Of a stretch of DNA of 64,000 bases, positions 2,123 through 53,223 are shown piece by piece (within the stretch, counting starts at the first letter, position 1; every line of letters starts with the position of its first letter). The stretch comes from Octopus vulgaris. Lineage: Eukaryota. The stretch lies in NCBI GenBank assembly GCA_951406725.2, contig OX597839.1, forward strand, positions 7,998,001 to 8,062,000, read 5' to 3'. Below the pieces are notes generated by a model that searched no databases, was not told where the DNA came from, and worked only from the letters and a program-made list of their open reading frames with translations. Position numbers and translations under genes: made by a program.

Positions 2123-2371
2123 CACATATATACATACATAAAGGCGGCGAGCTGGCAAAAACGTTAGCACGCCGGGCGAAATGCTTAGCGGTATTTCGTC
2201 TGCGTTACGTTGTGAGTTCAAATTTCGCCGAGGTCGACTTTGCCTTTCATCCTTTCGGGGTCGATAAATTAAATACCAGTTATGCACTGGGGTCGATGTA
2301 ATCGACTTAATACCTATGTCTGTCCTTGTTTGTCCCCTCTGTGTTTAGCCCCTTGTGGGTAATAAAGAAAT

Positions 2372-2423
<52 letters not shown>

Positions 2424-2426
2424 TTG

Positions 2427-2486
<60 letters not shown>

Positions 2487-2732
2487 CACATATATACATA
2501 CATAAAGGCGGCGAGCTGGCAGAAACGTTAGCACGTCGGGCGAAATGCTTAGCGGTATTTCGTCTGCCGTTATGCTGTGAGTTCAAATTCCGCCGAGGTC
2601 CACTTTGCCTTTCATCCTTTCGGGGTCGATAAATTAAGTACCAGTTACGCACTGGGGTCGATGTAATCGATTTACTCCCTTTGTCTGTCCTTGTTTGTTC
2701 CCTCTATGTTTAGCCCCTTGTGGGTAATAAAG
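1711..2732 (+). repeat. (TA)n/(TG)n microsatellites with three tandem SINE-A starts (1978 truncated, 2141-2375, 2505-2732)
   Basis: Each AAGGCGGCGAGCTGGC head is preceded by the same TACATATTTGTATGTG(TA)n..CACATATATACATACATA block. Confidence 0.9.
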
Positions 2733-2994
2733 ATATATAAATATATGTGTGTGTGTGTGTATAAATGTATGTATGCATTTATTACAGAGTAGCTCATTCT
2801 AAAATCTCTGTAAGAGGTGCACGTAGGAGCTCTAGTGGAAAGTAATGTTTGTTGCCACTTCAAACATGGCTGTCACGTATGGAACGACGTTACTACCCTT
2901 AACTACTTGCAAACCATGGGACTCACAGTAACAGTATTTTTTGTCGACAAAACAAATTTGAACAAACACTAATGAAGCAGTGTTTTATTATTTT

Positions 2995-3300
2995 CTATTC
3001 TTTTATCTCTTCTCACTCATTAGACTGCGGCCATACTGGAGCACTGCCTTGAGATTTTTAGTCGAACTAATCGAAACAAGAGCTTATTTTCTTTCTAAGC
3101 CTGGTTCTTATCCCATCGATATCTTTGGCTCAACTGCTAAGTTACGGGGATGAAAACCCTTCCAACACCCATCGTCAGGCGGTAGTGGAGGACAAGTTAG
3201 CCCCTTGTGGGTAGTAAAGAAATAGGTAGTGGGGGACAAGCAAAAAGCCACACACACTCACAACACACACACACACTCATGCATATGTATATATGACGGG
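2995..3300 (-). mobile_element. SINE family B, degenerate 3' half
   Basis: GACTGCGGCCATACTGGAGCAC, GCTAAGTTACGGGGA and terminal GACGGG match the reverse complement of the family B tail. Confidence 0.7.
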
Positions 3301-3368
3301 GACGTAGCTCAGTGGTAGAGCGTTCGCTTTGCATGAGAAAGGCTCCGGATTCGATCCCGGCTTCTCCA
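3298..3368 (+). pseudogene. tRNA-Ala(TGC), degenerate (probable pseudogene)
   Basis: GGGGACG TA GCTC AGTGGTA GAGC G TTCGC TT TGC AT GAGAA AGGCT CCGGA TTCGAT CCCGG CTTCTCC A; G3:U70 Ala identity pair present; mismatches in acceptor, anticodon and T stems; T-arm one nt short; TTTT just downstream. Confidence 0.8.
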
Positions 3369-3619
3369 AAGTGTTTTATTATAGGCGTAGGAGTGTCTGT
3401 GTGGTAAGTAGCCAAATGGACTATAAAGTCCAATAATTGTCGTTTTTGATGGAAAAAAAGAGGACAATGTTTCAGAGAAGTAGAAAATCGGCGGGCGTTT
3501 TCTGCCTTCTCTCATCAATATCATCCTTGTTTCATCATTCACCTCATCAATGTATATGTCCAGCCCGCAAGCTACTCTTTGTAATGCCTTTATGGAAAAT
3601 CTTAATGAAATAAAGTAGC

Positions 3620-4168
3620 CAGCGGAGGTAGGATTTGAACTGTTATCCTCATTAAGAGGAAAGAAATATTATAGGTTTCCCGGTTTGGGGGATAATCAAT
3701 TTATTACTGCGTGAAAAATTTAATTTTAGCCGTTGTAGGCTCTATTGCGGCACTCGTCCCTAGCAGGGGTGAGATTTGAACTGTTGTTCTCGTTGTGAGG
3801 AAAAAAATATTATAGGTTTCCCGTTTTGGGGATACTGTATTTTTATTACTGTGTGAAAAGTATAATTTCGAACGCTGTCGGCTTTATTGTTACGTCTCGC
3901 CCCCCCCCAGCGGGGGTGAGATTTGAACTGTTGTCCTCGTTGTGAGAAAAAAAAAAATATAGGTTTCCCATTTATCTGGATTCTGTATTTTTATTATTGT
4001 GTGGAAAAAAAATTAATTTCGAACGTTGTAGGCTTTATTGTTACGTCTGCCTACCCCCCAGCGAGGGTGAGATTTGAACTGTTGTCCTCGTTGAGAGAAA
4101 AAAAAAAGTTAAAAATTATAGGTTTCCCATTTTCTGGGATTAAATTGTGTATAAATTTATTTCGAACG
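3620..4168. repeat. Tandem array, 4 x ~141-151 bp (copy 1)
   Basis: Units start near 3620, 3761, 3908, 4059 with AGCGGGGGTGAGATTTGAACTGTTGTCCTC...TTATAGGTTTCCC; colinear with 33279-33760. Confidence 0.9.
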
Positions 4169-4172
4169 AAAT

Positions 4173-4459
4173 ATGTCGGTCGAAATAATTCAAGAAACTA
4201 ACCAGCTGCATGAGCCAGCAAAAAAGTTCGCGGCAGTAACCGCTGTTTCGTGTGAAAATGTTGTAATAGAAACGGAGAAGCTCTTCGAGCTTTTTGAGAG
4301 AATGAAAGAGGAGGGTGGAGATATAAATATCTCACCCTCCCCTTCTGTTGAAAATCTGAAGAGAAGGACTGGTTTACAAAACGTACTGTCCTTCATCGAA
4401 AAAATTCAAGCACTTCGAAGAGTGCGAAATAGAAAAATGCCTGGCCCCTATATGGAAAC
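4173..4459 (+). other. Possible truncated ORF of unknown function within the cargo (MSVEIIQETNQLHEPAKK...), also hairpin-rich
   Basis: About 95 non-repetitive open codons from an ATG directly after the array, interrupted by the SINE-B tail; no recognisable motif. Confidence 0.3.
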
Positions 4460-4474
4460 AAGTAAAAGAGTATA

Positions 4475-31208: not shown

Positions 31209-31626
31209 AAGGCGGCGAGCTGGCAGAAATGTTAGCACGCCGGGCGAAATGCGTAACCGTGTTTCGTCTGCCATTTACATTCTGAGTTCAAATTCCACCG
31301 AGCTCGACTTTGCCTTTCATCCTTTCGGGGTCGATAAATAAAGTACCAGTTACGCACTGGGGTCGATGTAATCGACTTAATCCGTTTGTCTGTCCTTGTT
31401 TGTTCCCTCTATGTTTAGCCCCTTGTGGATAGTAAAAAAATAGGTATTTCGTCTGCCGTTACGTTCTGAGTTCAAATTCCGCCGAGGTCGACTTTGCCTT
31501 TCATCCTTTCAGGGTCAATAAATAAAGTACCAGTTACACACTGGGGTAGATGTAATCGACTTAATCCCTTTGTCTGTCCTCGTTTGTCCCCTCTATGTTT
31601 AGCCCCTTGTGGGCAATAAAGAAAAA
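31209..31626 (+). mobile_element. SINE family A dimer with 18-bp TSD
   Basis: TAACGCTGTTGCCATTTT at 31191-31208 and 31627-31644; the second monomer starts at internal GTATTTCGTCTGCC. Confidence 0.92.
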
Positions 31627-31978
31627 TAACGCTGTTGCCATTTTTACTACGAATAACACCACGAGCTAAACAGCCATTACTACAAGGACGAATTAAAACA
31701 CCACTAGTAATACCAACAGTACTTAGGCTACCACTAGACATCACTACCGTTAAACCTAAACCAATATTTACAACGTTCACATCACAGCCATTACTAATTG
31801 CAAGCATTACCTCCCCTGTCTCGTAAAAAAACACCTTGTTGTTGCTTAGTTCAATAAATGCGCGTTGTATGTAACTTTTAAATATATTCAATTTTCTTAG
31901 AATACAGTAAATGAGGTGGGAAAAGAAAATTAAAGTAATATTAAGTAATATCAAGTAAATATTAAATAAGTAATCAAT

Positions 31979-32987: not shown

Positions 32988-34150
32988 AGGCGTGGGAGTG
33001 GCTGTGTGGTAAGGTGCTTGCTAACCTCTGTCGTGGATAGACGTGTTTTTCATTTTTGGCGGTGAGTCAAACGTTTTCTATTGGAATTGTTGTATGTTTA
33101 TCGTTGAATATTTTCGAACTGTTGGACATTGTCGAACTTTTAAACTTTGAAAATTTCTCTGCTTTTTCCCGGTGACGGGAGAAAGTAATTCTTTGTGTAA
33201 AGCCATTTTTGCAGTTGTGAACTGTTGACTTATTGAACTTATTAAAGCCGTTGTAGGCTATATTGTTGCCCCCCCCCCCAGCGGGGCAGGGATTTGAACT
33301 GTTATCCTCATTAAGAGGAAAGAAATATTATAGGTTTCCCGGTTTTGGGGATAATCAATTTATTACTGCGTGAAAAATTAAATTTTAGCCGTTGTAGGCT
33401 CTATTGTGGCACCCGTCCGTAGCGTGGGTGAGATTTGAACTGTTGTTCTCGTTGTGAGGGGAAAAAAATATTATAGGTTTCCCGTTTTTGGGATACTGTA
33501 TTTTTATTACTGTGTGAAAAATTTAATTTCGAACGTTGTAGGTTTTGTTGTTACATCTCGCTCCCCAGTGGGGGTGAGATTTGAACTGTTGTCCTCGTTG
33601 TGAGAAAAAATATTATAGGTTTCCCGTTTTGGGGTATTCTGTATTTTTATTATTGTGTAGAAAAAAAAATTAATTTCGAACGTTGTAGGCTTCGTTGTTA
33701 CGTCTCACCCCCCAGCGGGGGTGGGATTTGAACTGTTGTCCTCGTTGAGAGAAAAAAAGTATGAAATAAAGTAGCTTGGTTACCAACCACTTGGTTCCGG
33801 GTTCAGTCCTACTGCGTGGCACCTTGGGCAAGTGTCTTCTACTATAGCGTCGGGCCGACCAAAGCCTTGTGAGTGGACTTGGTAGACGGAAACTAAAAGA
33901 AGCCCGTCGCACATATGTATATATATATATACGTGTGTGTGTGTGTGTGTTTATGTGTACGTGCGTGCGTGTGTGTTTGTGTTTGTTCCCCCAATATCTC
34001 TTGGCAACCGATGCTGGTGTTTTTGCGTCCTTGTCACCTACCGGTTCGGCAAAAGAGACCGATAGAATAAATACTGGAGTCGAATTGTTCCACTAAGACC
34101 CTCTACTGAAGGATAGTGCTCCAGCACGGTCGCAGTCCAATGTCTGGAAC
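32988..34150 (+). mobile_element. SINE family B split by a ~740-bp cargo (33028-33767)
   Basis: Head 32988-33027; the SINE resumes at AAGTAGCTTGGTTACCAACCAC (~33769) and runs to the tail. Confidence 0.8.
33279..33760. repeat. Tandem array of ~141-147-bp units (copy 2; 3 full + 1 partial)
   Basis: Units start near 33279, 33420, 33566, 33713; unit-specific variants match copy 1 in the same order. Confidence 0.9.
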
Positions 34151-34260
34151 AGATAACGGATATCATTCAATCTATCCTGCAGCTCGATTATGGTTGCAAT
34201 GCATTGTTTCTGTGCGTGTGTCACAAGATAGGCCATAAATTTTACCGACAAACATATCTT

Positions 34261-52679: not shown

Positions 52680-53223
52680 TTTCTTTACTACCCACAAGGG
52701 GCTAAACACAGAGGGGACAAACAAGCTCAGACAAAGGGATTAAGTCGATTACATCGATCCCAGTGCGTAACTGGTACTAAATTTATCGACCCCGAAAGGA
52801 TAAAAAAGGCAAAGTCGACCTCGGCGGAATTTGAATTCAGAACGTAGCGGCAGACGAAATACCTATTTCTTTACTGCCCTCAAGGGGCTAAACACAGAGG
52901 GGACAAACAAGGACAGACAAAGGGATTAAGTTGATTACATCGACCCCAGTGCGGCGAGCTGGCAGAAACGTTAGCACGCCGGGCGAAATGCATAGCCGTA
53001 ATTTGTCTGTCGTTACGTTGTGAGTTCAAATTCTGCCGAGGTCGACTTTGCCTTTCATCCATTCGGATCGGTAAGTTAAGTACCAGTTACGCACTGGGGT
53101 CGATGTAATCGACTTAATACCCATGTCTGTCTTTGTCCCTTCTATGTTTAGCCACTTGTGGGAAATAAAGAAATAGGTACTTAATTTATCGACCCCGAAA
53201 GAATGAAAGGCAAAGTCGACCTC
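52680..53223. mobile_element. Four-part SINE-A composite with inversions
   Basis: Minus 52680-52862, minus partial 52863-52950, plus 52951-53178, minus partial 53176-53223. Confidence 0.85.

Follow-up and report, generated by a model that had tools for sequence, protein, structure and literature searches.

A 64,000-nucleotide window of the Octopus vulgaris genome (contig OX597839.1) contains a copy of the repeat SINE-B whose head and terminus are separated, at positions 3382 to 4471 (locus 1), by DNA of foreign appearance, and part of this cargo recurs inside another SINE-B head 30 kb away (locus 2). The question raised by this arrangement is whether the SINE has captured and spread foreign DNA or whether the cargo is an element in its own right that inserts into the SINE. 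A first-pass annotation of the window, made from the sequence alone, had proposed both, had given SINE-B its label and had described a SINE-B head, a segment, an array, an open frame, a SINE terminus and repeats at the two loci, all of which we could read directly in the sequence.

A genome-wide search (2.8-Gb genome) with the array gave 159 candidates and one with the 163 unique bp of the 207-bp segment of locus 1 gave 907; the best 40 of 159 and the best 40 of 907 were scored. At 30 array loci, the array was mostly preceded by the leader found at locus 2 and followed by the open frame found at locus 1. The annotation had suggested assembling the full donor, and extension of 20 loci yielded a complete element, family A, a LINE of ~5.7 kb whose 5′ UTR is an array of ~150-bp units. 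Full-length copies (L035, L182) consist of leader, array, ORF1, ORF2 and a 3′ UTR ending in ATGAAATA, followed by AAGTAGCTTGCT and the SINE body; a SINE head is also present at L182. Pfam searches identified zf-CCHC (PF00098) in ORF1 and Exo_endo_phos, RVT_1 and zf-RVT in ORF2; in broken copies RVT_1 and zf-RVT scored above cut-off and the endonuclease below it. Eight of 43 array matches lay on the contig that holds the window (41 Mb, ~1.5% of the genome), which may reflect query bias or real local enrichment.

The 207-bp segment derives from a second family, B, which is ~2.0–2.3 kb long, carries ORF1 only and has just its last ~40–45 nt in common with A. Its ORF1 is 25–31% identical to that of the autonomous partner, copies L068 and L158 have target-site duplications of their own, and ORF2 matches occurred within 2.4 kb upstream of the B end at only 1 of 39 B loci, where they came from a stacked A. 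Family B has the features of a non-autonomous, ORF1-only passenger. A protein search also recovered a young sister family, Y, that is 85% identical to A over ORF2. Among its 138 matches, 13 had open frames of 1140–1150 aa, one of which (L211) belongs to another subfamily. An intact Y ORF2 of 1140 aa contained PF03372, PF00078 and PF13966, all above cut-offs, and the intact Y ORF1 (a 488-codon stop-to-stop frame) contained PF00098. Y copies L205–L223 (e.g., G000:C9:2663500-2682000) are ~99% identical. Stacked chromosomal insertions, joined head to tail, were found in the orders B-A (L197), A-B (L094) and Y-Y-Y, the last being three Y copies within one SINE (L222/L223). Contigs from four runs covered 28–30 of 30 bins of Y, a coverage that has no bearing on transcription.

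The elements have a fixed 3′ end, variable 5′ truncation, target-site duplications of variable length and neither LTRs nor TIRs, and the Y ORF2 has an N-terminal APE endonuclease, a reverse transcriptase and a C-terminal zinc finger, as in L1/Tx1-type non-LTR retrotransposons. The best PDB match of ORF2 was human L1 ORF2p (228 bits), with R2 reaching at most 72 bits, whereas an alligator protein named 'transposon TX1 149 kDa' (P0201) scored 290 bits and was 37% identical over the reverse transcriptase stretch. By these similarity scores, the families likely belong to the Tx1 clade. The ESM Atlas returned only generic endonuclease and reverse transcriptase clusters for the element proteins, and a word-limited search of the endonuclease fragment against longer proteins gave no match. 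An RLE-type (R4/NeSL) LINE, entertained from a by-eye reading of L010, was rejected: full-length copies carry an APE endonuclease, and the L010 stretch behind the idea is a separate insertion.

With these families in hand, locus 1 could be read from end to end on the plus strand. The host SINE-B head (3384–3412), which matches the heads flanking full-length copies at 90–93%, is cut at the target site, its AAGTAGC end lying at 3406–3412. There begins the upstream copy of AAGTAGCCA (3406–3414), the 9-bp direct repeat already noted in the first-pass annotation, which is likely the target-site duplication of a B element and was also recovered as the duplicated flank in the analysis of element ends (L051). 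The 5′-truncated 3′ UTR of B follows (3415–3612), ending in ATGAAATA and matching the 3′ end of the full-length B copy L079 at 95% over 205 bp. The downstream copy of AAGTAGCCA (3613–3621) comprises the target AAGTAGC and the first two bases of a truncated A. In terms of the original description, the 207-bp segment spans 3413–3619 and the 15-mer ATGAAATAAAGTAGC occupies 3605–3619. The array of A (3620–4172) is 5′-truncated at unit 1, aligns to the 5′ part of L182 and holds the matching position in other copies; TRF placed it at 3619–4105 with a period of 151 and 3.3 copies, so the array that had been reported is present but its fourth unit is partial. The ORF1 start of A, with its ATG at 4173, extends to about 4458, where it breaks off. 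Near its end the frame of this fragment differs from the reading of other copies, and in L035 the continuation of the frame begun here contains zf-CCHC. A 4-bp GAAA microhomology joins ORF1 to the exact SINE-B terminus GAAACAAGTAAAAGAG (4455–4470), which thus ends one base before the 4471 first given.

Locus 1 is therefore a SINE head, a 3′ stub of B and a 5′-truncated A, followed by a presumed deletion to the SINE terminus. The truncated A likely inserted first and B later, just upstream, because the duplicated flank of B includes the first two bases of A, two extra matching bases on which this order rests. The B-then-A order also occurs at L197, there with a near full-length A. Fifteen bp before the SINE head, ARAGORN called a tRNA-Ala(TGC) gene at 3298–3368 on the plus strand, which may be a pseudogene.

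At locus 2, also on the plus strand, the host SINE-B head (32989–33025) includes an upstream target-like copy (33011–33025) and is followed by an intact 5′ end of family A (33026–33760), with a leader of ~220 bp and the array, that aligns from its first bases with L005 and L182. TRF placed this array at 33249–33762 (period 147, 3.6 copies). The 3′ tip of A, ATGAAATA, comes next (33761–33768), after an internal deletion of ~5 kb, and the SINE-B body restarts at AAGTAGC (33769–34151). From the alignments, locus 2 reads as a SINE head and an A 5′ end that lacks everything between array unit 4 and the final 8 nt of A, with the SINE body behind it. Such internal deletions are frequent among copies (L005, L114, L119, L181), and may be either DNA-level losses or template jumps during reverse transcription. 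The second ATGAAATAAAGTAGC, at 33761–33775, falls after the array, as the annotation had observed. Judged by alignment, this 15-mer is the shared 3′ end of A and B elements plus the target. It stands before the array at locus 1 because a second element, B, lies upstream of A, and after it at locus 2 because A lost its middle.

The insertion point of A and B is GTGGT^AAGTAGC in the SINE head. An exact 21-nt motif that marks the A/B end occurs 135 times genome-wide and is followed by exact AAGTAGC in 100 cases, so the suggestion of an element that targets the SINE-B head proved right. At loci picked by element-internal DNA, reading of the junctions found the site at 28/30 A ends and 34/39 B ends. 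A larger set of 131 distinct ends, which is non-random in that 40 regions were picked by flank class (7 non-matching, 33 matching), included 109 that agree with the 15-nt site in at least 11 nt; the SINE body continues after 99 of these 109. When read individually, the other 22 comprised 8 on-site ends with indels or stacking, 2 ambiguous ends and 12 that are off target. Family Y has 115 exact ends genome-wide; in position order, each of the first 30 opens with the site, and 28 run into a long SINE body. Exact empty 42-nt sites number at least 37,402 in two variants (16,273 and 21,129). Even with ten times as many empty sites, random insertion would be expected at this base in fewer than 1 in 10,000 cases.

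On the 5′ side, a SINE head lay within 60 nt upstream of 15/20 full-length 5′ ends and of 25/78 apparent truncation points, versus 26/4000 random windows; 41 further ends extended past the extracted sequence. The head-flanked truncation points leave elements of between 27 and ~2000 nt. Of the 53 truncation points that have no nearby head, many abut other repeats or subfamily sequence that the references lack; these resemble secondary insertions or unrepresented subfamilies. Truncated copies at the site have either duplications, of up to 19 bp in L010 and 15 bp in L140 and L120, or small target deletions, and in L114 one private variant is present in both duplication copies. Among the 12 off-target ends, 7 have their own duplications of 8–20 bp and a script detected none in 5. 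Such duplications place the end of the element at ATGAAATA(A) and the SINE body outside it. The letters TGCT(T/A)AC at the 5′ junction appear to belong to the element: they are present at the off-target full 5′ end of L119, and in L220, L221, the L222/L223 stack and locus 2 the downstream copy in the host reads differently.

Taken as a whole, we consider it about 90% probable that both loci are decayed LINE insertions, likely of the Tx1 clade, whose copies lie at GTGGT^AAGTAGCTTGCT in an abundant SINE head, likely through nicking by their own endonuclease. The anatomy, junction positions, duplications, older hosts (see below), passengers that carry ORF1 alone and share the 3′ end, and stacks are direct observations; the position of the copies at one base likely reflects a nick made there by the element's own endonuclease, from which reverse transcription is primed. 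By analogy with Tx1L (PMC1950540) and general TPRT, DNA synthesis would start from a bottom-strand nick made by the ORF2 endonuclease immediately 5′ of AAGTAG, with the 3′ end of the RNA as template. A second nick up to ~20 nt downstream would create the duplication. The target-like 5′ letters of the element may help second-strand joining and rebuild the site, which would allow later elements to insert again, while passengers would borrow ORF2 through the common ~40-nt 3′ end. The remainder of A at locus 1, together with the SINE body, would then have been lost through a microhomology deletion. In themselves, both window loci are ordinary decayed copies.

It is possible, if doubtful, that the elements truly or ancestrally target a tRNA gene, or else a short AAGTAG motif, and that the SINE is struck as a source of many look-alike sites. 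Off-target flanks often start with AAGT or AAGTAG-like letters, the supply of at least 37,402 exact empty sites is large, and the SINE head contains motifs that resemble the A-box and B-box consensus. Against this, 99/109 on-site ends run into the SINE body, no flank resembled a tRNA gene by eye, and a bare 6-mer would presumably have far more matches elsewhere in the genome than within the SINE. In one intact SINE copy Rfam detected no tRNA, and ARAGORN called none of the SINE copies in the window as a tRNA. This reading concerns the origin of the targeting and is compatible with an endonuclease-directed insertion into the SINE head.

Less probable is that loci 1 and 2 stem from one local duplication followed by different losses, an origin that the annotation had itself considered. 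Their arrays are 90.6% identical over a 489-bp alignment, a similarity far beyond chance; the two loci are 30 kb apart on the same strand, and among 30 arrays that of locus 2 is still the nearest to locus 1 (92.2%, next 89.2%), which a recent common source might also explain. However, the 2-kb downstream flanks do not align, the upstream matches fall in a different SINE family and in simple repeats and contain no unique collinear sequence, and the 5′ junctions are unlike. Because the contig of both loci holds 8/43 array matches, near neighbors are not rare. A local duplication, even if true, would have no effect on the targeting result.

The age of the host SINEs decides whether SINE head, cargo and SINE body could have moved as one composite retroposon, that is, as LINE pieces captured by the SINE and spread by the machinery of the SINE's partner. 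Nearly all copies are flanked by SINE, locus 1 ends exactly at the SINE terminus, and 13/26 Y hosts are of one common SINE variant, as such a unit would produce. In 17 Y copies, however, identity was 99.4% over the last 130 nt of the LINE and 92.2% over the 130 nt of SINE that follow (136/136 pairs). Likewise, in 26 of the 30 position-ordered Y copies, non-CpG divergence was 1.4% at the LINE end versus 7.0% in the adjoining SINE (318/325 pairs), and within one SINE variant it was 1.3% versus 4.9%. The host SINEs of Y are thus ~4–5 times more diverged than the LINE and existed before the insertion. The head also meets the element at many different truncation points, off-target copies have duplications of their own, and host SINE variants are found under both A and B. 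As a general mechanism, the composite is already contradicted and very improbable, and the proposal that the SINE captures and mobilizes foreign DNA is not supported: the cargo comes from LINEs that themselves encode an endonuclease and a reverse transcriptase, insert off target with duplications of their own and are younger than the flanking SINEs. A circular or viral donor (Polinton, Helitron or DNA virus), or the circular or concatemeric one hinted at in the first-pass annotation, draws its sole support from the apparent permutation of the 15-mer and is next to inconceivable, as every cargo base is collinear with family A or passenger B and the ORFs are LINE ORF1 and ORF2.

SINE-B was also considered as a passenger or partner of the LINE and rejected. 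Its tail is not shared with the LINE (score 17; shuffles 15.7), and 0/186 SINE-B termini lay at the target site. The idea that Y favors the TAAC form of the SINE was likewise discarded. Old A/B hosts have TTAC in 95/98 cases and TAAC in 3/98, and Y hosts include 18 TAAC and 11 TTAC; the Y fraction (18/29, 62%) is near the ratio among empty sites (21,129/37,402, 56%), and the contrast with the old families (3/98) is better explained by age. Host variant ratios that match empty-site availability therefore date the families and show no preference. We tentatively propose, as a conjecture that may well prove wrong, that the young lineage has specialized on the SINE without mobilizing it, would split the internal promoter of the SINE each time and tracks its host, the 5′ tag having gone from TGCTTAC to TGCTAAC when the SINE subfamily bearing this change became dominant. 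If so, the lineage would parasitize another transposon and co-evolve with that shifting target, accompanied by a guild of ORF1-only passengers.

Most site-specific LINEs insert into conserved host RNA genes or microsatellites, and a few into DNA transposons. In a SINE head, the landing sites are likely harmless, number in the tens of thousands and drift in sequence. Because old and young LINE families occur beside dated host subfamilies, the gain or keeping of endonuclease sequence specificity becomes testable, and intact young copies make such a test feasible. For annotation, the chimeras account for SINE-flanked 'cargo' that repeat pipelines would mis-assemble.

Tx1 targeting of other transposons is already known. 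Earlier reports describe Tx1 LINEs in transposons, namely Tx1L in Tx1D (Xenopus), Tx1-Mar in Mariner-N4_AMi and Tx1-9_AMi in Harbinger, as well as Tx1-8_Crp and Tx1-4_AMi, which target LTR elements (PMC4494074, PMC1950540), and state that Tx1L-EN nicks its target in vitro (PMC1950540). Like Tx1L and Tx1-Mar, the octopus families are APE-type LINEs with a reverse transcriptase, a C-terminal zinc finger and a preference for another mobile element, and, like Tx1-Mar with SINEU, they have non-autonomous passengers that use the same target (PMC4494074). A Tx1 family is there called 'target specific' when >20% of its flanks lie in one repeat (PMC4494074); with 100/135 exact A/B ends and 30/30 Y ends at the site, the octopus families are far above this threshold. 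Unlike the transposon-targeting Tx1 elements so described, the octopus families target a SINE head with single-base precision and comprise several autonomous subfamilies and stacking ORF1-only passengers. The same sources name elements that target small-RNA genes: Keno (U2), Mutsu (5S), Dewa (tRNA-Leu spacer) and the Dada DNA transposons (tRNA and snRNA genes) (PMC4494074, PMC3706591). As far as described there, these resemble the octopus families in occupying one set position within a conserved, RNA-gene-like sequence that is present in many copies; the octopus target, however, is a selfish repeat with subfamily turnover and theirs is a host gene, and Dada is a DDE transposon, unlike the octopus LINEs. 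Family B recalls HAL1 (half-L1; PMC5753468) in being non-autonomous, ~2 kb long and ORF1-only, but a short common 3′ end ties it to a site-specific, Tx1-like partner, to whose ORF1 its own is only 25–31% identical; it appears to function in a HAL1-like manner outside the mammalian HAL1 families. Octopus L1-Tx1 families have been counted (PMC13282606, PMC8967140), the accessible part of PMC13282606 without the word 'target', and other targets are listed in PMC3706591 and PMC3747384. This literature yielded no Tx1 family that targets a SINE and no target specificity for octopus Tx1 elements, which makes the SINE target a new aspect as far as could be found; supplements, Repbase entries and subscription papers may already describe the families.

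Several further repeats were seen alongside these families. Another passenger subfamily (L146, L151, L164, L171, L183, L202) has a B-like 3′ end and different upstream sequence, and several other 5′ leaders begin at the one SINE site, so more families share the target. A relative of Y, L224 (G000:C32:528600-536100), is 72% identical to Y, has a different 3′ end and is not flanked by SINE-B; Rfam gave no match around this distant Tx1-like copy. An element of ~440 bp with inverted ends, MITE-like by eye (L035:1233-1681, L010:864-1307), interrupts several LINE copies at differing positions. Lastly, a second SINE family, with 8 copies in the window (2141–2740, 31209–31630, 52860–52920 and others), carries a 28–30-nt near-perfect match to the LINE 3′ UTR, and its tail is followed by GGTATTTCGT, a sequence from inside its own head, in 19/80 cases (e.g., at 31443 and 52863). 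This second SINE is likely mobilized by a Tx1 element and self-targeting, a candidate parallel system.
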